In this document: positions 11,808 through 64,000 of the stretch, in pieces
Layout: each line of letters begins with the position of its first letter
Position numbering within the stretch: position 1 is the stretch's first letter
Origin: Escherichia phage vB_EcoM-RPN242
Sequence record: OL656110.1
Strand: one strand, 5' to 3'
DNA: 64,000 nucleotides
Translations under genes and position numbers: made by a program
Notes under the pieces: generated by a model
What the model was told of the DNA's origin: nothing
Seen by the model: the letters and a program-made list of their open reading frames with translations, nothing else
The model's database searches: none

Positions 11808-11866
11808 GATATAGTCTCTTGGTTTCAAATGGGCGGGGTAATCATACCCCGCCCAAAGTTATAGAA

Positions 11867-12106
11867 TTAACTGATGTGCTTCAGAAGAGCGAAGAGGATC
11901 GCGGCCTTGGCCTTTACCTTTCCCACGATGCCTGTCTCGACATCAACTTCTTCAGCAACCCACTCTTTGCCTTTCTTGCTGATGATCACGTCACGGCGCT
12001 GTGCGTAGACTTCTTTGGTCGCATACACACGACGGAACCCTTTAGCGCGGAGCAATCCCCAATTACGATCAATTTCTACTGAGGTTTCTACCATTTTGTT
12101 CTTCAT
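11867..12106 (-). CDS. hypothetical protein
   Basis: 79-aa ORF followed by a hairpin at 11831-11854. Confidence 0.5.
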   Translation of the reverse strand: MKNKMVETSVEIDRNWGLLRAKGFRRVYATKEVYAQRRDVIISKKGKEWVAEEVDVETGIVGKVKAKAAILFALLKHIS

Positions 12107-29470: not shown

Positions 29471-30199
29471 TTACTTCAGCGCGTTCTTCAGATTATCGGA
29501 ACCAATGCTGTTGATGACACCTCCGGCGCAGATATCTTTCGCCCACTCTGAGATCACGTTGGCAAAAGAGAAGTTAAGACACTTACCAACCATGTCTTGG
29601 ATATGGGCTAACTCTGCTGCAATACCGTTCGTGATGTCCTGAGCAATAGAGGCTACTGATGCGACAGCAGTGTCGATGGCCTGAGTAACTTCAGCAGCCA
29701 GTGCCTGAATAGCATCAAGACCAGCACCGACGCCCTGAGCTACCAACTCAGCCAGCTCATTCATCTTGTTTGTGATAGTTGTGAGAACACTTTGCATGGT
29801 GTTGATCCACTGTTTGCCGAGGTTCTGAATAACCCCAAATGCATTATTGATCAGATCACAGTTGTTCGGTTCTCGACCTATAGACTTCAGGGCGGACTTA
29901 TACGACACAGATGTACCGATGCGGGAATATGCCTCGTTCACTGACTGGTCGCCATAGTTGTTCAAAGTAGTGATGCTGTTGTTGGCTGAGTTGAACATTG
30001 CTGTAGATTCGTTGAGTTTGGCTGTAGTCAACCCACCTGCCGTCAGCGCTTCCTGAATCTGCGCATTTCCGGTGTTAGCCAGTGACGCTGTAGTCGCCTT
30101 ACCACTGGTGATTAACCCCTGTGAGGCGCTGCTGAGGGACGGGAGAGGATTGGTAAAGGCGTTGCCCTGTGATAGGGCGTCATAGATCTGTGCGTTCAT
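29471..30199 (-). CDS. hypothetical Ala/Thr/Gly-rich structural protein
   Basis: ORF with a CTAAATAC motif 28 nt upstream of ATG 30199; an alternative start at 30241 would make an ATGA overlap with the upstream gene. Confidence 0.5.
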   Translation of the reverse strand: MNAQIYDALSQGNAFTNPLPSLSSASQGLITSGKATTASLANTGNAQIQEALTAGGLTTAKLNESTAMFNSANNSITTLNNYGDQSVNEAYSRIGTSVSYKSALKSIGREPNNCDLINNAFGVIQNLGKQWINTMQSVLTTITNKMNELAELVAQGVGAGLDAIQALAAEVTQAIDTAVASVASIAQDITNGIAAELAHIQDMVGKCLNFSFANVISEWAKDICAGGVINSIGSDNLKNALK

Positions 30200-30227
30200 A
30201 AGAAAATACCCCCATGGATGATGGGGG

Positions 30228-30234
30228 TATTTAG
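30228..30234 (-). promoter_or_regulatory. late-promoter-like motif CTAAATACCCCC
   Basis: 28 nt upstream of ATG 30199; embedded in a palindrome. Confidence 0.4.
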
Positions 30235-30237
30235 GGA

Positions 30238-30408
30238 TCATGGTAGTTTGTAAACGAAGTTGGACCAGAACTTACGAACAAACTTCTTGACATAAACCAT
30301 TCGGTTGGCGTATTCCCCATCCTTCAGGTCATTGTAGGTCTCGATCCCTACCGCGCCCAAGAAGTACGCCGTGAAGATATAGCAGAACAGATTGATGACG
30401 ACAAACAT
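30238..30408 (-). CDS. small membrane protein (56 aa)
   Basis: Below the 60-aa cutoff of the ORF track. SD GGAGATA 4 nt upstream of the ATG; hydrophobic N-terminus MFVVINLFCYIFTAYFLGAVGI. Confidence 0.4.
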   Translation of the reverse strand: MFVVINLFCYIFTAYFLGAVGIETYNDLKDGEYANRMVYVKKFVRKFWSNFVYKLP

Positions 30409-30448
30409 GATGTATCTCCGCTGTGTGTACTCAATTATTTATGGTATG

Positions 30449-30871
30449 TTACAAAAGGCGCTTGGTCTTCGGCTTACCCATTAGAGTGATATCCACAGGC
30501 AGGCCAGCTTTCTTGCAACGGTTGATCATGTCCAGGGTGCCAGTGGACGAACCATCCCACATCGCAATCGGATACACTTCCAGCTTGGTCTGTCTGACGA
30601 GATCCAATGCCTTGTCTAACATGTCCTGATTGCGTTTGTTGCCCATCCCTTTCCCATACTTTTCATAATAGCTCGGAGGTATTGGCATAGGAGTGATATG
30701 AACATAATTGATTTCAGCCCAGTCACGGCAAATCTTGTCCACACCAGAGGCTTCACCCTCAATCAGTGTATAGACCTCACGAGGATCGAGGAGTTCGTCC
30801 AGCTTGGCGAATACCTTATCCCGCTCGGTGATTGAGCGGGAACCCGTAATGAGAACGATATACTTCTTCAT
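30449..30871 (-). CDS. DprA/SLOG-like Rossmann-fold protein (tentative)
   Basis: IVLITGSR and EGEASGVD resemble the DprA/Smf VVGSR and GxARGID motifs; 141 aa. Confidence 0.4.
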   Translation of the reverse strand: MKKYIVLITGSRSITERDKVFAKLDELLDPREVYTLIEGEASGVDKICRDWAEINYVHITPMPIPPSYYEKYGKGMGNKRNQDMLDKALDLVRQTKLEVYPIAMWDGSSTGTLDMINRCKKAGLPVDITLMGKPKTKRLL

Positions 30872-30875
30872 AGAA

Positions 30876-31196
30876 TCACAGCGCCCCAAGATTGCCGATT
30901 ACGTACAGGGAGCACAGAGGAGTACCTGACGAACGAGGTTCGATCGTCATCCCGCTCAGGCGGATCAGTTCCAGTAAGCCGTCAGTGGTCTGATACGCGC
31001 GTGTCGAACCGTTCGGTCGATATAGCTCCAGCTCAGTTCGCCCTTCCTTTATTGCATTTCGAATGCGAGTGAACACACTGTGGTCGCCGAACTTCTGTTT
31101 CAGAAGATCCAGCTTGGTGGTCAGGCGGCGACGTGGTTTGCGCGCACGAGGGTTCTCTTTTACGACCGCTTCTAAAATCGGGATGCTGTTAGCCAT
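30876..31196 (-). CDS. hypothetical protein
   Basis: 106-aa ORF with SD AGAGGA. Confidence 0.5.
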   Translation of the reverse strand: MANSIPILEAVVKENPRARKPRRRLTTKLDLLKQKFGDHSVFTRIRNAIKEGRTELELYRPNGSTRAYQTTDGLLELIRLSGMTIEPRSSGTPLCSLYVIGNLGAL

Positions 31197-31398
31197 GATA
31201 AAGTCCTCTATTTGTAGGGGATAGGGTATGCGGTTAACATACCCTGTTCAAAGGTTTAGAACAAATTGCTGCAATGTTACTTTGTAACGAGAGTGGTGAT
31301 AGTTCCTTCATTTCAGAGTCAGTGTTGTGCTGCTTATGGAATGAAGTATACGGGGTTTATTGAAGAATTAAACCCCGTATATTGAATAAATTTAAAAT

Positions 31399-31635
31399 TT
31401 ATTTGAAGCGATCAGGAAGGGTGTCGTGAACCTCGGCGCTCAGCACCAGAAACTTACCATCCGTCGTTGGGAAGCAATAGTCTTTCTTGATGTGACGCAA
31501 GTGTTCAGCTACAGCTGCTACGCAGTCATCTGTCACGTCGGTCTTCTCACCAACCCACATGCTGGTTTTGGTGTTCAACCTGCCCTGGAATATAGTACCA
31601 GTGAGAGGACTTGCGCCGATCTTTTTGATAATCAT
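31399..31635 (-). CDS. hypothetical protein
   Basis: 78-aa ORF with SD GAGG. Confidence 0.5.
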   Translation of the reverse strand: MIIKKIGASPLTGTIFQGRLNTKTSMWVGEKTDVTDDCVAAVAEHLRHIKKDYCFPTTDGKFLVLSAEVHDTLPDRFK

Positions 31636-31643
31636 GTTTAACC

Positions 31644-32087
31644 TCAGTTGTTAACGCGGAATGCCGCCGGATACCCACCTGGATGCCCTTCTCCGGTCAC
31701 GAAGACCTCGTACCGGGCACCTTTAACCAAACCAGGCAAATTGCCTGAGTCAAGCAGATAGCGGATTTTATCCATAGTCTCCATCCAGGACTTAGCAGGT
31801 TCGGCCTCGGCCTCCCCACGGTTGATTTTGATCACACCCTCTGAATAATACTTCCCATTGTCCTTCATGTAGTACAGCTTGACATCGATAAACTGTGGGG
31901 ATGGAACTTCTGTCCAACCCTCATCGTTCAAATCCTGGCGATCATTGTCGAAACTCTGAAAATCAACATCACCGCATGCCAGGCGATAATCTTTGAATTT
32001 ACGGAAACCTTCCACCTTGTCCCCAACGGAGCTACGGAAGAACTGTTTCTTGGCGGGACTAATGAAAATGAAATTCTTGTCACACAT
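31644..32087 (-). CDS. hypothetical protein
   Basis: 147 aa from ATG 32087 with SD AAGGA (track start is an upstream TTG). Confidence 0.5.
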   Translation of the reverse strand: MCDKNFIFISPAKKQFFRSSVGDKVEGFRKFKDYRLACGDVDFQSFDNDRQDLNDEGWTEVPSPQFIDVKLYYMKDNGKYYSEGVIKINRGEAEAEPAKSWMETMDKIRYLLDSGNLPGLVKGARYEVFVTGEGHPGGYPAAFRVNN

Positions 32088-32104
32088 GATATAGATCCTT
32101 CCTT

Positions 32105-32329
32105 TCAAAGAATGTTGTGTTCGTCGATATCGGACTGCGTTGCAATCTCCCAGCGGACGATGTTCTCGGTTGTGACGAAATCACGGTTCAGGTGAGAGGC
32201 TGGCACATACACCATCGTGTCGACCATGAAGTAACACTGCTCATTGTTACAAGAATCAACGTAAACCTCGATGAGGCACACCTCGGCAACACCGGCTTTC
32301 GGCTTCTTCACGATCTTTTTCAAGTACAT
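32105..32329 (-). CDS. hypothetical protein
   Basis: 74-aa ORF with SD GAGGG; a 32-bp repeat element lies 26 nt upstream. Confidence 0.5.
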   Translation of the reverse strand: MYLKKIVKKPKAGVAEVCLIEVYVDSCNNEQCYFMVDTMVYVPASHLNRDFVTTENIVRWEIATQSDIDEHNIL

Positions 32330-32354
32330 GGTACAACCCTCGGATAAGTAGACG

Positions 32355-32386
32355 GGGCAATAATACCTCTCGCCCCGTTATTGAAA
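32355..32386 (-). repeat. 32-bp conserved intergenic element, copy B
   Basis: GGGCAATAATACCTCTCGCCCCGTTATTGAAA, identical to 32615-32646; ends about 26 nt upstream of the next start codon. Confidence 0.7.
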
Positions 32387-32389
32387 CTG

Positions 32390-32590
32390 TTATCCTTCTT
32401 GTTCTTCCCAACCCCATTCATCTTCCCAAGACTGGCGAGGGGTCTTGCCTGCTTCGTAATCATCACGCCAGGCGTCGGCGTCGGCGGCTGAACCGCCCTG
32501 GCTTTTCGCGACTTTGCATAATACGTCGTGCCACTCACGGAAAGTGGAGTTGGCGACTGTGGTGTTTACAGAATCTTCTTTCAGGCTCAT
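32390..32590 (-). CDS. hypothetical acidic Trp-rich protein
   Basis: 66 aa from the ATG with SD GAGGA; flanked on both sides by copies of the 32-bp repeat. Confidence 0.45.
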   Translation of the reverse strand: MSLKEDSVNTTVANSTFREWHDVLCKVAKSQGGSAADADAWRDDYEAGKTPRQSWEDEWGWEEQEG

Positions 32591-32614
32591 TGTGATTTCC
32601 TCGATTAATAGAGA

Positions 32615-32646
32615 GGGCAATAATACCTCTCGCCCCGTTATTGAAA
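32615..32646 (-). repeat. 32-bp conserved intergenic element, copy A
   Basis: Identical to 32355-32386; ends about 25 nt upstream of ATG 32590. Confidence 0.7.
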
Positions 32647-32653
32647 TGTTCTT

Positions 32654-34126
32654 TTAGTTCAAGACATATTTGATCAGTCCACAATTCCAAATCCTGACCA
32701 ACCCGGCTTCGGTTGCTAACTGGCTTTCTGTTTTGCCTTCTACGTCATACCCCATGCGAGCAAATGAACCTTTTCTGAAACCGAATTTGTGCTCACGCAT
32801 AAATGTGCCAGGCTTGTGATATTTGTAGTCTGGCTTCTGTACTTCCTCTTCTATGAATCCGTGGGATAGGTAAATGTTGGACAACCTGCTTACAACACAC
32901 CTATCCCCAAAGGAATAGATTTTGGTGTCGGCAAATTTTCTTCTGAAGTGTGAAAGAAGTTTACTGAATGCCCCGTGGCAATCATTAGAGGCAAATCTGA
33001 CTAATTCCAGGCCATCTTTCCTTTTAGTGAATAGCATCACGGCTTGTATGACCCCACTCTTGTCAATTAACGATAAATGGTGGGTGGAAGAAACGGAACC
33101 TTGTATGTGGTGGTTGTCTAAAAACTCCCTCAAGCCGCTTATATTTCCCCAAACGACTTTGTGTTGGCGAGCATATGACGCAGGCGTTTTAATGCCAAGT
33201 TTAGCTTTCAGAAGAGATTTGACCACTTCCTGTTTCTCAACCCATTCATCTTCCCAGATGTGGATCAACTGGATACCCTGAGATTCACATATTTCAGTCT
33301 TTTCCAGGTGATAATATTTCTCTTTAAAAACTTCTGAATGCCAGTACAGGCCATTAAATTCAATCGCCAATTTGTGTTCAGGGCAATAGATATCCAGTTG
33401 TTTACCGGATAATATACTGTAATCAGAAACAGTGTTTACAACTCCCATTGAGGTGAGAAACTCGGATATTTCCTTTTCATAAGAAGATTTCTTGTTCCTG
33501 ATAGAACCATTGCTGAACAACGCACGTTTTAGTATGTTCGAGTTTTTCATAGGGTTGTCAACACCATAACGTTCTTGTAACGTTGCCAACGCCTTCTCCC
33601 TCACACCAGGTAATTGTAGTGTGGAGCAGCTTCCGTATTTGGATATATTCGAAGTCTCTATGGCTTTCCGACCAATCCCACCTTTACACATAGAAACCTG
33701 ATAACATTCTTCAGAACAATATGTTCTGTAATCTTTATTATTGATATAAAAGTTGGTTTCCTTGGAACACACCGGGCATATTTTCACGGTTCTATTGTAC
33801 AGCCAAGCTGTGACTTTACAAGCCAAATCTTGTAGGGTGTTGTGGGTATTGGCGAACGCTAAAAGGTCTACATTGATGTGCTTCATAAGCAGTTCAGATT
33901 TGCATTTTTGGATATCCAATTTGTTGTTCTTGGTAAACATATATTTGTAGAAAAATTGGCGATATGATTCCTCGTCAGACAATTCATTCACTGCTTCAAG
34001 GAAACCTTCCGGGAGGTTCTTTAGGGTGTTCGATGCGAAGGTCTTGCAAGCATCTGAACAAAATTTCTTATCTTTCCTGGATGCTTTGAACTGTTCATGG
34101 CAGACACTACAGATTACCTGATACAT
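32654..34126 (-). CDS. zinc-ribbon plus restriction-endonuclease-like (Vsr/DUF559-type) protein; putative free-standing homing endonuclease
   Basis: N-terminal CxxC pairs; C-terminal LAIEFNGLYWHSE...IHIWEDEW resembles the Vsr/PD-(D/E)XK core. Strong SD GGAGGAGA upstream of ATG 34126. Inserted just downstream of the major capsid gene. Confidence 0.45.
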   Translation of the reverse strand: MYQVICSVCHEQFKASRKDKKFCSDACKTFASNTLKNLPEGFLEAVNELSDEESYRQFFYKYMFTKNNKLDIQKCKSELLMKHINVDLLAFANTHNTLQDLACKVTAWLYNRTVKICPVCSKETNFYINNKDYRTYCSEECYQVSMCKGGIGRKAIETSNISKYGSCSTLQLPGVREKALATLQERYGVDNPMKNSNILKRALFSNGSIRNKKSSYEKEISEFLTSMGVVNTVSDYSILSGKQLDIYCPEHKLAIEFNGLYWHSEVFKEKYYHLEKTEICESQGIQLIHIWEDEWVEKQEVVKSLLKAKLGIKTPASYARQHKVVWGNISGLREFLDNHHIQGSVSSTHHLSLIDKSGVIQAVMLFTKRKDGLELVRFASNDCHGAFSKLLSHFRRKFADTKIYSFGDRCVVSRLSNIYLSHGFIEEEVQKPDYKYHKPGTFMREHKFGFRKGSFARMGYDVEGKTESQLATEAGLVRIWNCGLIKYVLN

Positions 34127-34170: not shown

Positions 34171-34204
34171 TATGAACAAATAAAAACCCCGCCGAAGCGG
34201 GGTT
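34171..34204 (-). terminator. strong intrinsic terminator after major capsid gene
   Basis: AACCCCGC-cgaa-GCGGGGTT followed on the minus strand by TTTTTATTTG. Confidence 0.7.
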
Positions 34205-34230
34205 TGTCAGGGTTAAGGACAACTATTCGA

Positions 34231-35553
34231 TTAGAAAAGTCCCTTAATTAACCCTTTGCGGAAATACACGTTGCTGTCCTTGGCGATACCATCCGCAGTC
34301 ACATAGACCTGTGGATCCTGGTTCGCTGGGATCTGAACGAATGGGTTAGCACAAATCCCGTAGCGGGTCTTGAATGCCATACGTGGTGCGAAGGTGGTTT
34401 CACCCTGGGTGCGGTACATTTCCAGCGGTACATACGGTGCGAAGAAGATACCAGCGTCCAGCGCGGTTGCGCCTTTGTATGCCAGGGTGATGTATTCTGC
34501 TACTGCATACGGGTCGATGTAGACACGCATACCGTTAGACAGCACACCAGCGAAGGTCTGGCCAGTCGGATCAATCGCCAGCTTGGTGTTTTCCTGCAGC
34601 GCCGGAGCATAATCCAGCATGCCGGACATCGCCAGAGCGGATGCTACGTTCGGAGAACACAGAACACGGTTGCCTTTACCACGACGGGTATCAACACCGA
34701 TGCCGTTCGCTTCAACTTCCAGCATGAAAGTCATGTACTTCCATTTTTCCAGCGCCCAACGACCGGAGATGTCAGTGGAGATATCTACGATACCATTGGT
34801 GCCGAATTTTTTGAAGCGTACTGCGCTGAAGTTCATGGTGCGGATAAACTCACGGTTCATCTCTGCCTGAATTTCAGTTACCATCACGTCGGACAGGATG
34901 CTGTCAACGTCTTCGCCGTGGATCGCCATCATGTCCTGGCGCAGTTCGTGGCTGTAGTCAGCGTACAGGCCACGAGACTTCGCAGTCACGGTTGCTTTCT
35001 GAACGGTGATACCAACACGTGCCCATGGGTTGGTGGTGGTGCCCAGCAGTTCGGCGTCGGTAGTTGACATACCTTTACCGATGGTGGTAGCAGCGCCGGA
35101 ACCTTCGATCTCAGTCTGGGAGAAGCCAGATGGGTCGCCAGCCTGTGCAGTGTCGTCACCAGAGTAGCCAGAATCAGCTTCCTGCATGAACAGTTCTTTA
35201 CGGGAATGTTGGGTGTTGGAGCCGCCGTCTGAAATGCCCTGGCGAGCACGCAGTGCGAAGATCTGACCGTCAGGACCAGACAACGGCTGAACGCCGAAGA
35301 AGTCCATCGCGATGTTGACCGGAGCCAGACGTTTGGCCATGTCGATCAGGACTGGCTGCCATTTGCCCACAGAGGCGTTCACGGAGCCAGGAGCGTCAGA
35401 TTCGCCCAGGTTTTTGGCGTTCCACTCAGCCTGGTTTTGCAGCAGACGGACGGCAACGTTTTCGGCAGAAAGCGGCTGGATGCTTTCAGATTCTTTCTGA
35501 AGAACTGGCAGCCACTGCTCGCGCATTTGTTCGGTAACAAGTTTCTTAGCCAT
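34231..35553 (-). CDS. 23: major capsid protein (T4 gp23-like)
   Basis: 440-aa ORF with a gp23-type sequence pattern; SD AAGGAA 8 nt upstream of the second ATG; strong terminator downstream; sits in 20-21-22-23 synteny. Confidence 0.85.
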   Translation of the reverse strand: MAKKLVTEQMREQWLPVLQKESESIQPLSAENVAVRLLQNQAEWNAKNLGESDAPGSVNASVGKWQPVLIDMAKRLAPVNIAMDFFGVQPLSGPDGQIFALRARQGISDGGSNTQHSRKELFMQEADSGYSGDDTAQAGDPSGFSQTEIEGSGAATTIGKGMSTTDAELLGTTTNPWARVGITVQKATVTAKSRGLYADYSHELRQDMMAIHGEDVDSILSDVMVTEIQAEMNREFIRTMNFSAVRFKKFGTNGIVDISTDISGRWALEKWKYMTFMLEVEANGIGVDTRRGKGNRVLCSPNVASALAMSGMLDYAPALQENTKLAIDPTGQTFAGVLSNGMRVYIDPYAVAEYITLAYKGATALDAGIFFAPYVPLEMYRTQGETTFAPRMAFKTRYGICANPFVQIPANQDPQVYVTADGIAKDSNVYFRKGLIKGLF

Positions 35554-35644
35554 GATGGTCATTCCTTACATTGATATTCAGTTAAGTTGAAATTACTTAG
35601 TAGTTCAAAATCAAGCCCCCTTTCGAGGGCTGTGGCTGCTAAAA

Positions 35645-40057: not shown

Positions 40058-40771
40058 TTACACAATTCTAATTAGCTGCCAACCCGTCGTGTTCAAACGC
40101 TCTGCGGTCGCAGTTTTCCTATGATACACAGACGGTGGTGGAACTGGAATACCCTTGTCGATGTAATCATAGAGTGCTGAATATTTAAGTCCCAACCTCT
40201 CCACGTATTCGCGACAATTCCCGTGGATTTCGTATTCTTCGCCGGATGGAGATACCAATTTGAATCGCTTGGCATGACCGTTGTTCTTGCCCTTTCTGAT
40301 TCCAGTTTCAATGCATTTTCGACTAAATGATAATTTACCTTCTTCTTTCCATTCAACCCCGATCCGACAGCTAATGATTTCTCCTGTTTTCCACCGTGGA
40401 TCATCGCAATCAACTAAACCGAGATGTTCACCAGTAGAAGTCAAAACTGCTCCGTGTTTATTGGAAAATGTGGACCCGTCTCCACCCCAGGTCTTGTTGT
40501 ACCCTTTCTGAGTTGACATGTGGGTTCCGTGTTGCTTTATAAGAATGATTTCCAATTCTTTTAGATCTTCCAGGGATTTGGTCTGGGCTAACACTTGAAC
40601 AGAAAAGGACTCTTCTCCGTACTTTCTTATTGCTTGGTGAATAAAGTAATCAGATCCCTTCTGAGCACTATTGCAGTGCTCCCACCACCTTTGCATAGGG
40701 TCTCTCGTCGTTATCCCAATATAGGCTTTCTGATTGACTAGATTTGTAATTTTGTAAACACTTCCGATCAT
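40058..40771 (-). CDS. GIY-YIG homing endonuclease (free-standing, between tail tube and sheath genes)
   Basis: N-terminal GSVYKITNLVNQKAYIGIT...RWWEH is a classic GIY-YIG module; 237 aa. Confidence 0.8.
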   Translation of the reverse strand: MIGSVYKITNLVNQKAYIGITTRDPMQRWWEHCNSAQKGSDYFIHQAIRKYGEESFSVQVLAQTKSLEDLKELEIILIKQHGTHMSTQKGYNKTWGGDGSTFSNKHGAVLTSTGEHLGLVDCDDPRWKTGEIISCRIGVEWKEEGKLSFSRKCIETGIRKGKNNGHAKRFKLVSPSGEEYEIHGNCREYVERLGLKYSALYDYIDKGIPVPPPSVYHRKTATAERLNTTGWQLIRIV

Positions 40772-53585: not shown

Positions 53586-53947
53586 TATACAACCAACCGA
53601 GGAATAGAAAGAAATAAGCCCGAAGGGGCTTTGATTATCTTTCTGTGGTTATGGTCATGGATTCAAGACCTCCGCATTCTTCAGGAACTATTGCAGGGGT
53701 GCTGGTACAGCCAGGGAATGGAGAACGCAAACAAGGCGAACCAATGGAACCACAGTAGTAGGTTCAGATGCTAGTGTTAAGGTACAGGGTACAGACATTG
53801 CCAACAGAGATAACGTATTAGCCACTTACACACTTGGTTCGACAGACCCTTTCATGGTAGAAGGTATTCAATTGGGTATGTTTAATATCTCTGGGCAAGT
53901 AATCACCTTAACAGCAGTATCAATTAGGGTAATGCAAACAGTAAATT

Positions 53948-53995: not shown

Positions 53996-56221
53996 TCACG
54001 CTTCTGGCGAGGGGATAGTAAACCAATCGGACGCTGTTCCTGTTGTAGTGCCTTTATGCCTCCAGCCACTAACAGTTCTTTTTACCGTAGGGCTATCCTG
54101 CCAACCTGTTGCCGGGAGAAAGAAATTCCTCACTGGGGCGGGGTTTAACGCTCCAGTAGCTGGCGTGGCGGTTCCAGTCTGAGATGATACGAAGGTGGTT
54201 ACTGTTGAGTAATCTATTACGTTATCATCATGAAACGCATTCGTGTATAGATTTGCGGGTGCTGAGTTAACGAAGAATGCCGTAGTAACCCCGCTAACCT
54301 TGTTTCTATATACGTTGTTCCATCTACAGTTACCACCAAGGCGTATACCCTCAGAATCAGAAGCCCCCGCAATGGTGTTACTATCTATGTCACAATATTG
54401 GAAACTTTGAGCTACTAAAAACCGGCAACTATTACGCGTAACCCTGCCGTAAGTAGACGTACCATTGGCATAGTAAACTGTTATATTGCCAGATGTTAAA
54501 CAGTCTTTAATCGAGAAATTGGTCATAGGGCTAGTAAGGTATACACTGCCAGTACCTTTCACTGTAATGTTTATATTTTTTCTAACTGTCAGGGTGTATG
54601 CGGGCGCGCTATACATACTGACTATATACCCGTTCGCCCCTGTATTTACAGGGACATTTGCATCCACTGTCACATAATCACAGTCCTTAATTAATATCGC
54701 AGCGGTTGTTTGAGCGCCAGTCTTTACGAATCTAATAGACGGGTTTGTGATGGTAAAGTTCTGGCATTGCTCCATAAAGATAACGCCTGATACTTGATCG
54801 TCTGCCGCCAGCGAGTCTACAACAATACGCTGAGCACCAAATGCCCCCATAACCCCATACTTTCCGCCTTTAATATAATCAGCATGGGTGTTGCAGTCGA
54901 AGCATTTTGCACCAAAATATATACCTCCGTTGTTGGCCGTAGGTTTTAGGGTGTTATGGGATGTACGGATGTTACGGCAGCCAGCATAAGATATTATTTG
55001 CGCATCCCCACCGGTCCCTCCAATGTGGGTCGTACCTGTAACAGTACAATCTGTAGATCCGTAACCAAAAAATATATTACCATTTCCGACACGCCCGGTA
55101 TGGGTAGTGTTGTGGTACACCACACCGTACGCGTTATCATGCCTTGAACCGCCATTTCCATTATAATCAAAAACAGTACCATGGAACTCTATAAGCGAAG
55201 CCCCCACAGATTGGTACATGTAGCTAGACCCTGACGCAGAATTTTTTAAGATTCCCCCGATGAACTTAGTAGCGTTGCCTTTTATAAGATAAATAACCGA
55301 ATTGGTGGTAGTTAGGTCCCACGGTAAAGCCGTTGCTAAATTTACGGTAGCACCTGATATGGACGAGATTAAAAAAGATTCGCCTTGGTATCCGGTTACA
55401 TCCGGATTCTGTGCGTTGGCAATATACCAAGCGTCACTTGTGTCCTCAGTGCGTATTACCAACGCCCGAGTATACCCAGTTCCTGCCACCTCAGATGTTA
55501 ATGTGATGGACGTTGCTCCGGAAGCCGCAGGGGAAAGCAAGCTGAATTGGCTCTCGCTGACGAAATTAAGAGCATTAGCGGTCAATGATGTCAACCCAGC
55601 ACCGTGACCGAAAGTAAAAATCGTACCTTTTGGTATGTTGACTTGTGAATGGGAAATTGTCATGCCCGGAGGAACAAAAACATTCCCCGAGTTAATGGCT
55701 AACTGTAAACTAGATGCCTCATCAGACCCATCACCGACAACCCCAAAAGCACGCACGTCCCGTAAATTAGGATCTGTCTGCGGCTTCCAGTCAGCGTTAC
55801 CAACTGGGTTAGTTCCTGCGACAATAGTTACAGGTAAGGAACCTAAGTAGGTGTAACCTATGCCATTATAAAATAGTAATTCATTTCTAGTATTCACAAC
55901 TAAACCAGTAGCAAACGAGTCGGATAGGTTCACGAACTCTCTACGTGTAGCAGCCAGTTCCCCCAAATCAACTGTGCCTGCGGAATGAACCAGGACTGCA
56001 TGTTTATTGAGGCTTACGGCAGTGGTTCCTACTGGAAGTACAGGTAATGAGTAAGCACGTTGGGTAGACTTGTCATAGATTACTTTGTAGCCACCCAAGT
56101 CCACTCCCACAGCAAAGTAGACTACTTCATTTTGCTTAACACCAAACTTACGAGCAATGGCTTGCTTATTGGTAAGAATACCAGTAGAGCCTTTACCGCC
56201 TTGTGAGAACATTTCGTTCAT
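53996..56221 (-). CDS. tailspike protein 1 (beta-helix type)
   Basis: 741 aa; N-terminal module NKQAIARKFGVKQNEVVYF...VLVHSAGTVDLGELA is shared with the other tailspikes; C-terminus is repetitive and Gly/Asn/Thr-rich, typical of a parallel beta-helix. Confidence 0.75.
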   Translation of the reverse strand: MNEMFSQGGKGSTGILTNKQAIARKFGVKQNEVVYFAVGVDLGGYKVIYDKSTQRAYSLPVLPVGTTAVSLNKHAVLVHSAGTVDLGELAATRREFVNLSDSFATGLVVNTRNELLFYNGIGYTYLGSLPVTIVAGTNPVGNADWKPQTDPNLRDVRAFGVVGDGSDEASSLQLAINSGNVFVPPGMTISHSQVNIPKGTIFTFGHGAGLTSLTANALNFVSESQFSLLSPAASGATSITLTSEVAGTGYTRALVIRTEDTSDAWYIANAQNPDVTGYQGESFLISSISGATVNLATALPWDLTTTNSVIYLIKGNATKFIGGILKNSASGSSYMYQSVGASLIEFHGTVFDYNGNGGSRHDNAYGVVYHNTTHTGRVGNGNIFFGYGSTDCTVTGTTHIGGTGGDAQIISYAGCRNIRTSHNTLKPTANNGGIYFGAKCFDCNTHADYIKGGKYGVMGAFGAQRIVVDSLAADDQVSGVIFMEQCQNFTITNPSIRFVKTGAQTTAAILIKDCDYVTVDANVPVNTGANGYIVSMYSAPAYTLTVRKNINITVKGTGSVYLTSPMTNFSIKDCLTSGNITVYYANGTSTYGRVTRNSCRFLVAQSFQYCDIDSNTIAGASDSEGIRLGGNCRWNNVYRNKVSGVTTAFFVNSAPANLYTNAFHDDNVIDYSTVTTFVSSQTGTATPATGALNPAPVRNFFLPATGWQDSPTVKRTVSGWRHKGTTTGTASDWFTIPSPEA

Positions 56222-58984: not shown

Positions 58985-58991
58985 TATTTAG
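58985..58991 (-). promoter_or_regulatory. late-promoter-like motif CTAAATACCCC upstream of tailspike 2
   Basis: Part of a conserved cassette repeated at 61647. Confidence 0.45.
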
Positions 58992-59066: not shown

Positions 59067-61616
59067 TCAATTGAGTTTTGATATCTCTACAGTTATACCG
59101 AATACGTTATTCGGTCTACTTGTGGTTGTAGCTATAGTTAGCTCAAAGAAATGCGCGTTTATATCTGGTGACTGTGTGTATCCCGCAGAATTAGTTAATG
59201 TTACATTGAGTGATATGTCCGAATCTGTTACGCCGTTTATGCGAATTTCATTCACAGGTCCTGATAGCGACGCGGCGGAAGTTGCACCTATCTTATGATT
59301 TACCAGGTACGTCTTCTCAATATAAGCAACGGATCCCCCATTATTATATGAAGAGCACGACTTAACTTTTACCAGTAGGTTTTGCGATTCTAATGTTCCA
59401 TAGTTATCAAAAATCTTTAAAACTTTGTTAGCAGATGCACCAGAAATGCTTCCACAGTTCACTTCCCATAATGTAGTTCTATTCGCATTCGGTGCGTTCT
59501 CATACATGTAGAAACTACCATCTGGAATTACCCTGTTGTTTATTAATGTTTTCAGATTTCCGCAGTTACCTATTAGTCTCACGTGGGCATTGATGTTTGT
59601 TAATGTTACTGTTTTTATTTTTGATTCTGTGTTTGCGCACCTAATAGAACCACCCATGCAGTTAATATTTTCGTAATAGACATTACCAGCTTGCCACGGT
59701 AACGCGAAAATATCGTCCGCCCGGTTTTTATAATTGAGCGCAACATTAGCAGCAATCCAGTCTCGGTGCATAGAAGAATCACCAGTAAATGTGACGATAC
59801 CTATTTGAGGGTCTTCTGCTGGGGTTGTGCCCAAACTGGCAACTATATTGATATCTGTCAGCTCACCACCAAGACATCTTATATTTGGCATATCATATTC
59901 TTCGGTGGCAAATACGTTACGCCATTTAGCATCAAAACCAGCGTGCGAGTCCATCGTGGCGAAGTTATTATAACCGAAGCACTTTTTAACCTCGAACTTG
60001 TTGAACCATGTTGTTGGGGAGGCAGCATGTCTACAGAATGATGCTGTGATGCTATCAACAACTGTATCGTAAGTGCCCGCCGCAGGGCTGATAGGATACT
60101 GACACCTATTAGCAACTACATTGCCAATCCTTGGCATATAGCAAGCTATTAATAAGTACGAGGAACCACCACTGGTTTCCACGTCACCAGAAAAGACTGG
60201 CATATAAAAACCACGGAACCATGAAGATGAAACCCCAAATGATGCGGTGCCTATATTAACAAAAGATGAGTTATCACGGTTGTTAAAGTGCTCCATCTTG
60301 AAGTTATTGAAAATCAACCTTACCGGTTTGTACCTGTTAACCTTAACGTTGTTTGCTACTAGATGATCGAATAGCGCTGGCCTATCAACTTTCATATTAG
60401 AACCAGATTCACGCTCTGCAATAAACAACTCCCTTGAGTTAAAATTCCACTGAGTCTCGTACGTCTTGTTGTCCTCTATATAAATCAAATCACCCTCTAC
60501 AGCCCCAGCCACCCGCGCAACTGTGGAGCCGCTTACCATATCAGCTAGAAGTGAAGACTGAATCTCGGTTGATGACAGGTGCATTTCCACCCCATCAGAG
60601 GCCCCGAACAGCTTTATGCCAGACCAATCAACAACTAAGTTTTTATCAATCGACAATAGTTCTATATTACTGGTTACAGTAACCTCACCGACTGACCTGA
60701 AGTATCCACGGCACCCGGATGTGTAAGCTACAGTCAGGAATTCAGATATAGTCTGGCCTGATACAGACCCTCCAGCGGTTATGCCGAAATCATCTCCGCA
60801 AATCGCGCTTATAGGGGTAAATGATGTTAATGCCGGCTGGGAAGCAGACCTGACCCACATTGTACCGCCGGTTGAGCATACCGAATCTACAGGTAACTCT
60901 GCCTCCGTGGACGCAATCATCTCGTAAAAAGAGGAGAAATGTTTGTATATTCCAGCAACTTTGTAACCACCAGTTATAGGATTAGTCCCAGCGACAACTA
61001 TACCAGCAGGACCGGAGAACGCCTTACCAGTGCGTTCTTGTAGTAGCACATCGTTGGCGTTCACTAGTGTACCGCCCGACTCAAAGCTACCATCTACTAG
61101 ATTATAGCCTGCTGTTGCATAGCTACGGCGCAACGCCTCACGGGTCTGTGTACTTGTGAACTGATTGGAGCACCTAATATAACCACTCCCTGGAAGAGTA
61201 GGGTCTGTGCCAGCAGGAACTACTTTAGGTAATGCCCCATCCCAACGGTACTTCCCATCTGTAAAGACAACTAATTCATTCTTGGTATTAACTGTTACAC
61301 CGGTATCAAATGACCCAGACAATGTGACGTACTCTTCACGAGATACAGCCAATTCCCCGAGATCTACAGAACCTGCTGAATGTACCAGGATTGCCTGTTC
61401 GTTCAGACTTATCGCAGTCGTTCCTGAAACAATACCTGAAGGAAGAGAATAAGCCCGTTGGGTAGACTCATCATAAATTACTTTAAATCCACTGAGATCA
61501 ATACCAGCAGTGAAATAAATGACTTCGTCTTCTTTGACACCGAAATTTCGAGCGATAGATTGTTTGTTAACTTCTATGGAAGTGGAGCCGCGTGGTTGAT
61601 TGAATTGAGAAATCAT
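59067..61616 (-). CDS. tailspike protein 3
   Basis: 849 aa; N-terminus VNKQSIARNFGVKEDEVIYF and a 60-aa block nearly identical to tailspike 4. Confidence 0.75.
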   Translation of the reverse strand: MISQFNQPRGSTSIEVNKQSIARNFGVKEDEVIYFTAGIDLSGFKVIYDESTQRAYSLPSGIVSGTTAISLNEQAILVHSAGSVDLGELAVSREEYVTLSGSFDTGVTVNTKNELVVFTDGKYRWDGALPKVVPAGTDPTLPGSGYIRCSNQFTSTQTREALRRSYATAGYNLVDGSFESGGTLVNANDVLLQERTGKAFSGPAGIVVAGTNPITGGYKVAGIYKHFSSFYEMIASTEAELPVDSVCSTGGTMWVRSASQPALTSFTPISAICGDDFGITAGGSVSGQTISEFLTVAYTSGCRGYFRSVGEVTVTSNIELLSIDKNLVVDWSGIKLFGASDGVEMHLSSTEIQSSLLADMVSGSTVARVAGAVEGDLIYIEDNKTYETQWNFNSRELFIAERESGSNMKVDRPALFDHLVANNVKVNRYKPVRLIFNNFKMEHFNNRDNSSFVNIGTASFGVSSSWFRGFYMPVFSGDVETSGGSSYLLIACYMPRIGNVVANRCQYPISPAAGTYDTVVDSITASFCRHAASPTTWFNKFEVKKCFGYNNFATMDSHAGFDAKWRNVFATEEYDMPNIRCLGGELTDINIVASLGTTPAEDPQIGIVTFTGDSSMHRDWIAANVALNYKNRADDIFALPWQAGNVYYENINCMGGSIRCANTESKIKTVTLTNINAHVRLIGNCGNLKTLINNRVIPDGSFYMYENAPNANRTTLWEVNCGSISGASANKVLKIFDNYGTLESQNLLVKVKSCSSYNNGGSVAYIEKTYLVNHKIGATSAASLSGPVNEIRINGVTDSDISLNVTLTNSAGYTQSPDINAHFFELTIATTTSRPNNVFGITVEISKLN
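61239..61385 (-). repeat. near-identical coding repeat in tailspike 3 N-terminal module
   Basis: About 145 bp with only a few mismatches against 63519-63665; encodes the shared VLVHSAGSVDLGELAVSREEYVTLSGSFDTGVTVNTKNELVVFTDGKYRWDG block. Confidence 0.8.
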
Positions 61617-61646: not shown

Positions 61647-61653
61647 TATTTAG
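61647..61653 (-). promoter_or_regulatory. late-promoter-like motif CTAAATACCCC upstream of tailspike 3
   Basis: Part of a conserved cassette repeated at 58985. Confidence 0.45.
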
Positions 61654-61715: not shown

Positions 61716-64000
61716 TTATGATGCATTTGCTGATTTGTTTAAATACCATCCGTAGTTCGTTTTTATTAACTCTACAATCTCCCCGTTTGTCTTGTATTTT
61801 GTCTTCCCGGTTTCTGTATTATACATAATTCTGTCGGTGACAGAGACGCCGGACGCTTGTTTTGAAAGCGTCACAACAGTGTTGCCGGATAACGGAAGTA
61901 TTGATATCCTTTGTCCGATATATCCACCAGTGATTGACGTTATCACTGATCCATTACTTCCAGCGTCGAGATAAAATACGTCGCAAGAGTTGGCATCTAA
62001 TGTAGTTGTTTCAGTTGTTAGCGTTTTCGTTGGCGACGAAATACCAAGCACAAATGATGAACCGTTCCATGTATATTCTTTGCCGTCAGCAAGACCAATC
62101 ACTCGCTCGTTGATTCTTAAATCGGGTGCAAAAGTCTTTCTAATGTCAACAATTTTAATAGTGCCACAAAACGGGACAGGGATAATCACGTTACCTGCAA
62201 GCCTGTTAATAGTGTAAATTGAATTGCTGATCGTCCACTGTCTACCGTTCCACATACTCATAAATGAACCAGAAGATAGAAGCACGGTTGAACTGTAACC
62301 TGCTTCCAAAGCATTTGTGTCTGTTATCATGCCGCGATCAATAGGATTGCTAAAATCGTCAGAGCAGTCGAATACTCTAATGTTTGCACGTCCTTCATAA
62401 TTACCTGATTGACCAACAGGTGCGATAACAAAGAGATAATCCTTATCAAAACCATAATCAGGGCCAACGCGTAAGAACGACGCCATACAGTTAGTGGTAG
62501 GGAACTGTCCTTTTACAACCCACTTTCCACTAGAATCTTGCATCAATAGCTTTTGAATGGCTATTTTGTACGGCTTAGTGGTCGTATCTGCTGCGCGCTC
62601 AATGGCAAACGGTGTTCCGTCATAAAAATTTCCGAAACCAATTTCACCGCCAGATGTACCGAGAGTATCGGTATCCGTGTCTTTCCTGACATCTTCACCG
62701 TAGGTGTAGTTACCGCTATCATCAACTGTGATATACCCCTCAACTATTCCGGTAGATAGTTGAGTTAAATAATAATAAGGAATTGCAGGCTTGCCATTTA
62801 TGTACCCGACTTGTGTAGGTGCAATTGATGAGAAGTAAGCACCAGATGGTTTAACCAATGGCGTAATATCAACAGGGGTGCTCCATGTATTGCCACCATC
62901 CTTTGATATGACATATTCAATAGTTGATGTTGTGTCAGGGTTAGTTCCTTGTTGTGCATGCCCCCACCCAGTAATCCCCTTCATTGATGTAAAGAAACAA
63001 TACAAATATCCATCAAGATTATTTAGGAATAGTACCGTTTCAGAAGTGGCATATCCTGGCCCTTTGTTAACAACAGTTCCAGTGGTCCAGTTCACACCGT
63101 TATCATCAGATATTAGGTAATCAATGTGCATAGGTGTGCCGTCCTGTCCTGGGTCAATATTAGCACCATCCTTCACTGTGTAGATACATACCACCCGCCC
63201 ACTTGGAAGTGACACCGCTTTTGGTGCAAAGTTAAATACATTCTCCACATAAGTTTGCAACTGTAAGCGCAAATTATTGTTAAAGCTTCTTGAGTATTTA
63301 TTCCCAAAAGCGAAATTAAATCTATTTTTTGCAATTGATTGCCTTTTGTAAAGCTCAAAATCTTTATCCTTGACTGCTCCGTTAACTAAATCAACTCCGT
63401 CATCATCAGCCAGGTCACTTCTTAAACTTACATCACCAACACTTAACCATTTTCCTGCACCAGTACCACCAGCACTCCCTGGGGTTGAGCCAGCAGAAAC
63501 CTCTTTAGGCAATTCCCCATCCCAGCGATACTTCCCATCTGTAAAGACAACTAATTCATTCTTGGTATTAACTGTTACACCGGTATCAAATGACCCGGAC
63601 AATGTGACGTACTCTTCACGAGATACAGCCAATTCCCCGAGATCTACAGAACCCGCTGAATGCACAAGTACAGCGGAAGGACTAAGACTGACAGCAGTAG
63701 TACCAGGGGCAATATCAGCAGGCAAGGGATAAGCCCTTTGCGTCTCCTTGTCATAAATAACTTTATACCCACTTAACGCAGCACCAACACTAAAATAAAC
63801 GACCTCTGTATCTTTAACATTGGTTACACGAGCAACTTCCCGCAAAGTATAATCAATTTGATTGTAGATGTTTGGTGTTCCATTGATAATTACAACAACT
63901 TCATCCTCTGGTTCCAGTTCTTGCGCAAGAGTGATTTTACTGGTTGATGGATCGAATGTGAATCCCAGATTTTTATACTGGCGACTTCCGTTTATATCAA
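61716..64000 (-). CDS. tailspike protein 4 with BNR/Asp-box repeats, N-terminus beyond window edge
   Basis: Frame remains open upstream of the track start (a TTG) to position 64000; the upstream translation matches the tailspike 2 linker. Two Asp-boxes, SDDNGVNWT and SKDGGNTWS. Confidence 0.75.
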   Translation of the reverse strand, partial: DINGSRQYKNLGFTFDPSTSKITLAQELEPEDEVVVIINGTPNIYNQIDYTLREVARVTNVKDTEVVYFSVGAALSGYKVIYDKETQRAYPLPADIAPGTTAVSLSPSAVLVHSAGSVDLGELAVSREEYVTLSGSFDTGVTVNTKNELVVFTDGKYRWDGELPKEVSAGSTPGSAGGTGAGKWLSVGDVSLRSDLADDDGVDLVNGAVKDKDFELYKRQSIAKNRFNFAFGNKYSRSFNNNLRLQLQTYVENVFNFAPKAVSLPSGRVVCIYTVKDGANIDPGQDGTPMHIDYLISDDNGVNWTTGTVVNKGPGYATSETVLFLNNLDGYLYCFFTSMKGITGWGHAQQGTNPDTTSTIEYVISKDGGNTWSTPVDITPLVKPSGAYFSSIAPTQVGYINGKPAIPYYYLTQLSTGIVEGYITVDDSGNYTYGEDVRKDTDTDTLGTSGGEIGFGNFYDGTPFAIERAADTTTKPYKIAIQKLLMQDSSGKWVVKGQFPTTNCMASFLRVGPDYGFDKDYLFVIAPVGQSGNYEGRANIRVFDCSDDFSNPIDRGMITDTNALEAGYSSTVLLSSGSFMSMWNGRQWTISNSIYTINRLAGNVIIPVPFCGTIKIVDIRKTFAPDLRINERVIGLADGKEYTWNGSSFVLGISSPTKTLTTETTTLDANSCDVFYLDAGSNGSVITSITGGYIGQRISILPLSGNTVVTLSKQASGVSVTDRIMYNTETGKTKYKTNGEIVELIKTNYGWYLNKSANAS
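63519..63665 (-). repeat. near-identical coding repeat in tailspike 4 N-terminal module
   Basis: Pairs with 61239-61385. Confidence 0.8.

Follow-up and report, generated by a model that had tools for sequence, protein, structure and literature searches.

Helicobacter pylori DprA binds single-stranded DNA (ssDNA) through two signatures, G-S/T/A-R and F/L/Y-x-x-R-N/D (with the variant A-M-x-R-N/D), which have been contrasted with the PGGxGTxxE signature of LOG proteins (PMC3950713). DprA/Smf proteins (PF02481; structures 4LJR, 3UQZ and 3MAJ) and LOG enzymes, which are cytokinin riboside 5′-monophosphate phosphoribohydrolases (PF03641), both carry the SLOG fold, as do Bacillus subtilis YpsA (2NX2), which acts on cell division and has its own GxD/E signature, the 308-amino acid (aa) antitoxin ShosA of the ShosTA system (8ZVA), which binds RecA, and the SLOG domain of ThsA from type I Thoeris (7UXS), which is fused to a SIR2 effector. 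A further family, YAcAr (PF10686), takes its name from "YspA, cpYpsA-related SLOG family" and was formerly called DUF2493. Here we describe a gene of Escherichia phage vB_EcoM-RPN242 (OL656110.1) that is assigned to this family from its sequence and predicted structure. The stretch analyzed is 64,000 nucleotides (nt) long and is referred to as the window; the gene is placed in it as follows.

30449..30871, minus strand: SLOG (YAcAr/DUF2493) gene, 140 aa plus stop, supported by the open reading frame (ORF) list, PF10686, PHROG 289, an AlphaFold2 model and SLOG fold matches

The ORF runs from an ATG at 30871 to a TAA at 30449-30451 and spans 423 nt, or 140 codons and a stop, which gives a product of 140 aa rather than the 141 aa stated in a preliminary description of this DNA. 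A mechanical call extends the ORF by six codons to a TTG at 30889. All of the aligned homologues (30/30) begin at the MKK of the ATG start or no more than two residues away; some GenBank records annotate longer starts, which are not conserved.

Family, fold and distribution

The SLOG protein matched PF10686 over aa 5-58 with an E-value of 1.7e-10 and 41 bits, against a curated gathering cut-off of 28.2 bits, and it matched PHROG 289 with an E-value of 2.5e-39, well beyond what chance would give. Precomputed PF10686 matches are present in all homologues except two short fragments and P0030. Close homologues carry the UniRef name "YspA cpYpsA-related SLOG domain-containing protein". The annotation DUF2493 is already in use for homologues in ChubbyThor and Vibrio phage BA3, and homologues in cluster-A-type mycobacteriophages are annotated "DprA-like". 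The family block (W/Y)xxYGxxAGxxRNxxM is present as Y69...G77..R80-N81..M84. When a profile of 127 distant homologues was searched against the PDB, only DprA chains were matched (E about 0.003), with the GSR and GxAxGxD motifs aligned, and hhalign matched E. coli Smf to the family profile over the same GSR/GxAxGxD region. Searches with the SLOG protein itself returned only a chance transaldolase match in the PDB and nothing meaningful in NCBIfam; in PADLOC no ThsA or ShosA model was matched, and the only match was a methylase at chance level.

An AlphaFold2 model built from a 31-sequence alignment was confident, with a predicted local distance difference test score (pLDDT) of 93.9 and a predicted template modeling score of 0.87. 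The modeled elements follow the order b1-a1-b2-a2-b3-long a3-b4-a4-b5 and end in a flexible tail, forming a three-layer Rossmannoid alpha/beta sandwich of the SLOG type around a 5-stranded sheet. The best structural matches of the model were all SLOG proteins, among them YpsA, ShosA, the ThsA SLOG domain, DprA and LOG, and H. pylori DprA held the top Foldseek rank. The matches are given with their scores.

B. subtilis YpsA (2NX2): 11.4
TM1055 (1RCU, uncharacterized in the PDB): 10.8
TRPM2: 10.7
ShosA: 10.7
ThsA SLOG domain with 3′ cyclic ADP-ribose (3′cADPR): 10.4
DprA, three species: 9.4-10.2
LOG enzymes: 8-9.4

The matched domain of TRPM2 binds ADP-ribose (ADPR), and TM1055 is presumably LOG-like. 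The preliminary description had called the product a small Rossmann protein resembling DprA/Smf and SLOG folds, citing ITGSR and EGEASGVD motifs, and this call holds: the two motifs are found at aa 8-12 and 38-45, respectively, and the PF10686 match, the DprA-only profile matches in the PDB, the motif content and the structural matches all agree with it. The profile and structure searches proposed there recovered a SLOG fold, and an unrelated fold was not seen. We conclude from sequence and model that the product is a single, free-standing SLOG domain of the YAcAr/DUF2493 family and amounts to a "mini-DprA".

The residues expected to line the pocket were located in four motifs, followed by a basic tail.

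30836..30844, minus strand: G10-S11-R12 loop after strand 1, DprA motif 1 (G-S/T/A-R), a phosphate/base gate; G10 invariant, R12 at least 90% conserved
30737..30757, minus strand: G39-x-A41-x-G43-x-D45 helix-capping motif, aligning to GGAxGxD of DprA
30629..30646, minus strand: M76-G77-N78-K79-R80-N81 in the long helix alpha3, hallmark (A)G-x-x-R-N; R80 and N81 invariant
30536..30550, minus strand: S108-S109-T110-G111-T112 loop before helix alpha4, counterpart of LOG PGGxGT and DprA SGS; G111 and T112 at least 90% conserved
30452..30478, minus strand: basic C-terminal tail GKPKTKRLL, predicted disordered and clade-specific

Across the 127 distant homologues, G10, G39, G43, D45, R80 and N81 are invariant, and R12, A41, W/Y69, A76, G77, M84, A103, G111 and T112 are at least 90% conserved; at position 76 the window protein has Met. 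The G10-S11-R12 loop reproduces DprA motif 1 exactly and lines up with the GTR/GSR found in DprA of H. pylori and S. pneumoniae and in E. coli Smf. The counterpart of DprA motif 2 would be (M/A)-G-x-x-R-N, which is collinear with FPRRN of Smf, in a region that the alignment stops short of. At the position of the catalytic Glu of LOG enzymes, the protein has M115 (in SSTGT-L-D-M), and this Met is invariant in the 31 homologues of the clade. Every Ackermannviridae-type homologue, including those with as little as 44% overall identity, ends in GKPKTKRLL or a close variant. The last block of the model has a pLDDT of about 61, and the tail has an isoelectric point (pI) of 11.3 vs 6.6 for the core. 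Obvious roles for this tail would be contact with DNA or docking of a partner.

Set beside the described systems, the protein is a direct member of YAcAr/DUF2493 (PF10686) and PHROG 289, with G10, R12, G39, G43, D45, R80, N81, G111 and T112 all present, and the Ackermannviridae clade differs from the wider family, where GKPKTKRLL is absent, by the addition of this tail. Unlike DprA/Smf proteins, it lacks SAM and winged-helix extensions, and the additional beta-alpha units seen in DprA could not be aligned to it. Identity to YpsA is only 15%, and no link to FtsZ is suggested. Unlike the SIR2-fused domain of ThsA, it is a stand-alone, phage-encoded single domain, and it did not match the ThsA hidden Markov models. 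No phosphoribosyltransferase (PRTase) gene adjoins the SLOG gene in the window, in contrast to ShosTA. ICP1 HelB contains the same domain family within a phage replication protein, where it is fused to a helicase, whereas in the window phage the domain is free-standing.

The 4-kb surroundings of the gene matched 264 phage records, which are enterobacterial Ackermannviridae save for two odd labels. The closest 4-kb matches were Escherichia phages LHE287, A221 and YX22 (96.8-98.8% nucleotide identity), and close relatives of the window are classified as Agtrevirus; by sequence, the window can be taken as an Agtrevirus-like Ackermannviridae phage. About 262 records encode the SLOG protein at 60% identity or more, and because this nearly equals the 264 that share the locus, we regard the gene as essentially universal in this phage family and, judging by these records, as a core gene of Ackermannviridae. 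With tblastn, a homologue was detected in 641 phage records, including Ackermannviridae, cluster-A-type mycobacteriophages, Queuovirinae, Vibrio schizoT4 phages and others. Among 1.84 billion cluster representatives (50% identity clusters), a profile search returned 26,006 proteins at E≤1e-3, mostly stand-alone and 113-140 aa long. The family has been catalogued before, and databases already contain the protein itself, since phage LHE287 encodes one with 100% identity. Because the family is catalogued, core in this phage family and common in other phages, we consider the locus, its function aside, ordinary.

Gene order and late-gene context

Reading along the minus strand, the head module ends in the major capsid gene and is followed by a terminator, a homing endonuclease, orf76, orf74, orf147, orf78, a 13-bp hairpin, orf106, SLOG, a 56-aa ORF and DUF7217. 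Beyond these come DUF7424, on the opposite strand, a gp3-like tail-completion gene, and the uvsY, exonuclease, uvsW and clamp genes.

34231..35562, minus strand: major capsid gene, end of the head module
34184..34205, minus strand: intrinsic terminator right after the major capsid gene; 9-bp stem, 6 GC pairs, then a T-run
31347..31381, minus strand: perfect 13-bp hairpin after orf78, upstream of orf106-SLOG; -17.5 kcal/mol, z = -6.2
30876..31196, minus strand: orf106, 106 aa, basic, pI 10.3; PHROG 4663
30238..30408, minus strand: 56-aa hydrophobic small ORF downstream of SLOG, with ATAAATA at 30436-30442 ahead
29471..30199, minus strand: DUF7217 gene, 242 aa from the conserved start; Pfam PF23854, E=1e-91
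22602, 27031, 30228, 36524, 42792, 47029, 47069, 53579, 58985, 61647 and 63020, minus strand: CTAAATA sites

The core of this gene order, in which a DUF7217-sized gene comes after SLOG, is shared by Agtrevirus, Kuttervirus, Taipeivirus and Nezavisimistyvirus, and the location of SLOG 2 kb upstream of uvsY-exonuclease-uvsW is kept in at least four Ackermannviridae genera. The element at 34184-34205 is a strong terminator that separates the head operon from the downstream small-gene cluster; similar terminator copies occur elsewhere in the window (family D3). The stop codon of orf106 lies 4 nt ahead of the SLOG ATG, and an orf106 homologue also adjoins SLOG in Kuttervirus Sajous1 (84% identity) and Taipeivirus 0507-KN2-1 (37% identity), suggesting that orf106, which has no Pfam match, encodes a probable co-translated partner of SLOG. 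The 13-bp hairpin has no T-run, is conserved in ChubbyThor, vB_CECAV_050 and Sajous1, and could be a terminator or a processing site. For DUF7217 the mechanical ORF has 256 aa (29471-30241), whereas nearly all homologues have 242 aa, and the start is most likely the ATG at 30199. Its AlphaFold2 model is an all-helical bundle for which an informative structural match was not found.

Two further observations were made in front of orf106. A hairpin GGGTATG-TTAACCG-CATACCC at 31224-31244 (minus strand), 27 nt before the orf106 start, lies in a block conserved in Agtrevirus and Kuttervirus; in Sajous1 the stem is kept (GGGTATGG/CCATACCC) and the loop differs, and because the stem is kept despite the different loop, a conserved RNA structure is suggested. 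ChubbyThor (gp184) and vB_CECAV_050 have a 282-nt gene between the orf78 and orf106 homologues that is missing from the window at 31197-31346. Because the upstream leader is retained and the start codon region is gone, this interval looks like a deletion.

The window contains 11 copies of the motif CTAAATA, all of them on the coding strand, vs 4.6 expected by chance, and none of 100 shuffles reached 11. The sites mostly lie 25-40 nt ahead of start codons, among them the starts of scaffold, uvsW, regA and DUF7217 (the DUF7217 site is at 30228-30234), and versions with one mismatch precede the capsid, gp3-like and 56-aa genes. We suggest CTAAATA as a putative core of the late promoter. Even when one mismatch is allowed, the motif is absent from 30443-33641, the region upstream of orf106/SLOG and the four preceding small genes. 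The T4 late-promoter octamer TATAAATA was rejected, since it is not enriched and has 2 sites, on the wrong strand. A literature search did not find a transcriptome of an Ackermannviridae phage. Several CTAAATA sites belong to an inverted repeat, AATACCCC(C)AT...ATGGGG(G)TATTTT, in which the motif is the 5′ arm and which stops immediately ahead of the ATG; one copy lies at 30196-30240 (minus strand), with similar sites at 58985-58991 and 61647-61653. Ahead of DUF7217 the repeat forms a stem of 12 bp (-17.2 kcal/mol, z = -2.65), and the uvsW copy is not significant. The inverted repeat may be an element of the 5′ untranslated region, because the genes concerned have no obvious Shine-Dalgarno sequence.

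Mass spectrometry of CsCl-purified Sajous1 virions detected 61 proteins, including gp166 and gp168 with 8 spectra each, and gp164 is not listed (PMC10892097, Table 6). Our gene mapping equates gp164 with SLOG (77% identity), gp166 with DUF7217 (61%) and gp168 with the gp3-like protein (80%). The "ferrojan horse" operon of Sajous1 (gp214-217) was also considered as the SLOG locus and was discarded, since gene mapping puts this operon elsewhere.

In the preliminary description the position of the gene among structural genes was called unexpected. The surroundings are indeed as described, with head genes upstream and a virion protein and a tail-completion gene downstream. The element of surprise is reduced in that the gene belongs to a small-gene cluster behind a terminator, that no CTAAATA occurs from orf76 to SLOG and that the position is kept across genera. 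Because no CTAAATA lies upstream and gp164 was not found in virions, the SLOG gene is surrounded by late and structural genes yet is probably not one itself. A role in the virion or in morphogenesis, which a location between head and tail genes might indicate, is accordingly very improbable: although the capsid module lies on one side and DUF7217 and the gp3-like gene on the other, with homologues of the latter two in Sajous1 virions, gp164 is not among the 61 virion proteins, the candidate promoter motif is missing and family members lie in replication or early regions of other phages.

Possible functions of the SLOG protein

The function that we favor, tentatively and ahead of a role in ADPR signaling, is that of a non-catalytic clamp for ssDNA or a nucleotide that assists phage replication and recombination. 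The G-S-R loop, GxAxGxD helix, R-N helix and SxGT loop build an invariant pocket, which would clamp one nucleotide unit (base and phosphate) without catalysis, on the model of the DprA Rossmann domain with ssDNA, and the most likely ligand would be ssDNA. The protein may thus be a small accessory factor of the replication and recombination machinery, the uvsY, exonuclease, uvsW and clamp genes of which lie just downstream. GKPKTKRLL would provide a second DNA contact or a contact with a partner, and the basic orf106 product may be the co-translated partner.

Several observations argue for such a clamp. The DprA-type motifs (G-S-R, GxAxGxD, R-N and SxGT) are kept, and invariant or conserved residues represent the ssDNA signatures of DprA, with G10/R12 for the first and R80/N81, by collinearity, as the putative second. 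The profile of 127 distant homologues matched only DprA chains in the PDB, and a precomputed Pfam DprA match is present in 16 of the 120 best family members listed. GT-L-D-M in place of GT-x-x-E speaks against a LOG-type enzyme. Core-gene status, the lack of an upstream CTAAATA and the absence of gp164 from the virion proteome also count in its favor. Within the family, ICP1 HelB is a superfamily 1B helicase with a C-terminal DUF2493, DciA-YAcAr fusions exist, and fusions of YAcAr to helicase, HNH and exonuclease domains have been reported (PMC9503650). The YAcAr gene lies between the clamp and DNA polymerase genes in Vibrio phage BA3 and adjoins a helicase gene in ValKK3. In mycobacteriophage Smeadley (L003, 2748-3863), a PRTase gene is immediately upstream of DUF2493 and a DnaB-like helicase gene two genes further upstream; the PRTase and DUF2493 pairing resembles the ShosT/ShosA defense pair. 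A PRTase next to a DprA-like protein also echoes the ComFC/DprA pair. In protein P0082, a DarT1-type NADAR, three YAcAr domains and DUF4326 are joined. The DarT1-associated type of NADAR removes ADPR from DNA. Because its NADAR is of this type, the P0082 fusion also fits a DNA-binding YAcAr.

Other observations weigh against the clamp. The protein has 140 aa vs about 205 aa for the DprA domain, and Pfam DprA (PF02481) did not match it at E≤1. DprA dimer-interface residues fall in the part without alignment to the SLOG protein. The phage protein has Gly (G77) where DprA motif 2 has an aromatic residue. Alignment of the family profile to E. coli Smf by hhalign and hmmalign covered the N-terminal half only and left the R-N to R-N equivalence unconfirmed; because these alignments do not reach across the additional beta-alpha units of DprA, the proposed match of R80/N81 to R143/N144 of DprA rests on collinearity, not alignment. 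The core domain is near neutral (pI 6.6), two virion genes and one opposite-strand gene separate SLOG from uvsY, and a literature search did not find an experiment on any YAcAr protein. Fusions and neighbors of the family also include NADAR, DUF4326, NUDIX and cREC, links that the Aravind group reads as processing of ADPR signals (PMC9503650, PMC7824862).

That reading leads to a counter-defense function, which is possible but which we consider somewhat less likely than a clamp. Here the SLOG pocket would bind, and perhaps cleave, 2′/3′cADPR, His-ADPR or ADPR, acting as a sensor, sponge or hydrolase that blunts Thoeris-like or other NAD-derived host signaling. It agrees with the published prediction for viral YpsA-clade SLOG domains (PMC9503650, PMC7824862), with the fold similarity to the ThsA SLOG domain and TRPM2, with the NADAR + 3 x YAcAr + DUF4326 and YAcAr + DUF4326 fusions of P0082 and P0241, with NADAR, NUDIX and cREC neighbors in metagenomic phage contigs, and with the place of SLOG in a cluster of small accessory-type genes lacking a late-promoter-like motif. 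However, neither PADLOC model of a signaling or antitoxin SLOG protein, ThsA or ShosA, was matched, the anti-Thoeris and sponge literature retrieved does not name any SLOG protein, and in all genera the gene belongs to the strictly conserved core and not to the variable accessory set. The LOG-type Glu is also missing, making hydrolysis by the known SLOG mechanism unlikely, and the P0082 NADAR, being of the DarT1 type that acts on ADP-ribosylated DNA, is equally consistent with DNA binding. A more specific proposal, which we regard as unlikely, is that of an immune-evasion factor. It would be either the first SLOG-fold viral sponge or hydrolase of cADPR-type (TIR-derived) signals, or a decoy "mini-DprA" that mimics ShosA-like antitoxins and keeps ShosTA-type abortive systems silent, with GKPKTKRLL docking on a host or phage partner in either case.

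Ackermannviridae use bases derived from 5-hydroxymethyldeoxyuridine. A LOG-like nucleotide N-glycosidase, or another nucleotide-metabolizing enzyme, could in principle remodel the deoxynucleoside monophosphate pool, for example for the hypermodified thymidine of this DNA, and one family member does have a sub-threshold Pfam Lysine_decarbox match. We consider such an enzyme improbable: with an invariant Met in place of the catalytic Glu of PGGxGTxxE, LOG-like catalysis is unlikely, Pfam LOG (PF03641) was not matched, and the family is widespread in phages without known base modification, such as mycobacteriophages.

Least credible of all are the functions implied by existing labels, GTP binding (PHROG 289) or chromosome segregation (phage Bue1), although these labels stand in PHROGs and in GenBank/RefSeq records. 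Direct inspection of the 140-aa sequence found neither a Walker A/P-loop (GxxxxGK[ST]) nor any G-domain motifs, and the predicted fold is SLOG and not that of a P-loop NTPase; the "GTP-binding domain" label is thus unsupported, because the protein lacks a P-loop. The source profile is itself chimeric: its 500 columns hold SLOG at 20-146 and the unrelated DUF7217 at 250-500, which has led to duplicated "GTP-binding domain-containing protein" labels on both genes, for example in phage vB_CECAV_050. A SLOG-DUF7217 fusion, as PHROG 289 might suggest, is absent from 30 DUF7217 homologues and from the genera inspected, and was set aside as a profile and annotation artifact.

Other elements of the window and significance

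Two homing endonuclease genes, both variable in presence among close relatives, were noted in the window. One, of the HNH type, follows the capsid gene at 32654-34126 (minus strand), and the other lies between the tail sheath and tail tube genes at 40058-40771 (minus strand) and is annotated as GIY-YIG in ChubbyThor. A 44-nt repeat, TTTCAATAACGGGGCGAGAGGTATTATTGCCC..., is found directly upstream of orf74 and orf76 (32343-32386 and 32603-32646, minus-strand reading), with a looser copy at 11824-11867. Its 25-nt core has two exact copies where none are expected by chance, and the first copy of the repeat folds as a 9-bp hairpin (-15.6 kcal/mol). A 188-nt direct repeat is present in three copies of 61-93% identity at 55806-55993, 61201-61388 and 63481-63668, near paired repeats of 50-57 nt at 53935/56486 and 58974/61636. 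Together, these repeats suggest a tandemly duplicated gene and leader arrangement.

The window locus adds nothing new beyond databases and comparative-genomics papers. DUF2493/YAcAr is one of the commoner uncharacterized phage domains, with 641 phage records and about 26,000 clusters at 50% identity, and SLOG is a core gene, as far as these records indicate, in Ackermannviridae, which are used for phage therapy and biocontrol. Deciding between ssDNA and a host immune nucleotide as the ligand would fill an annotation gap, and settling the function would mend the misleading labels "GTP-binding domain", "chromosome segregation protein" and "DprA-like".

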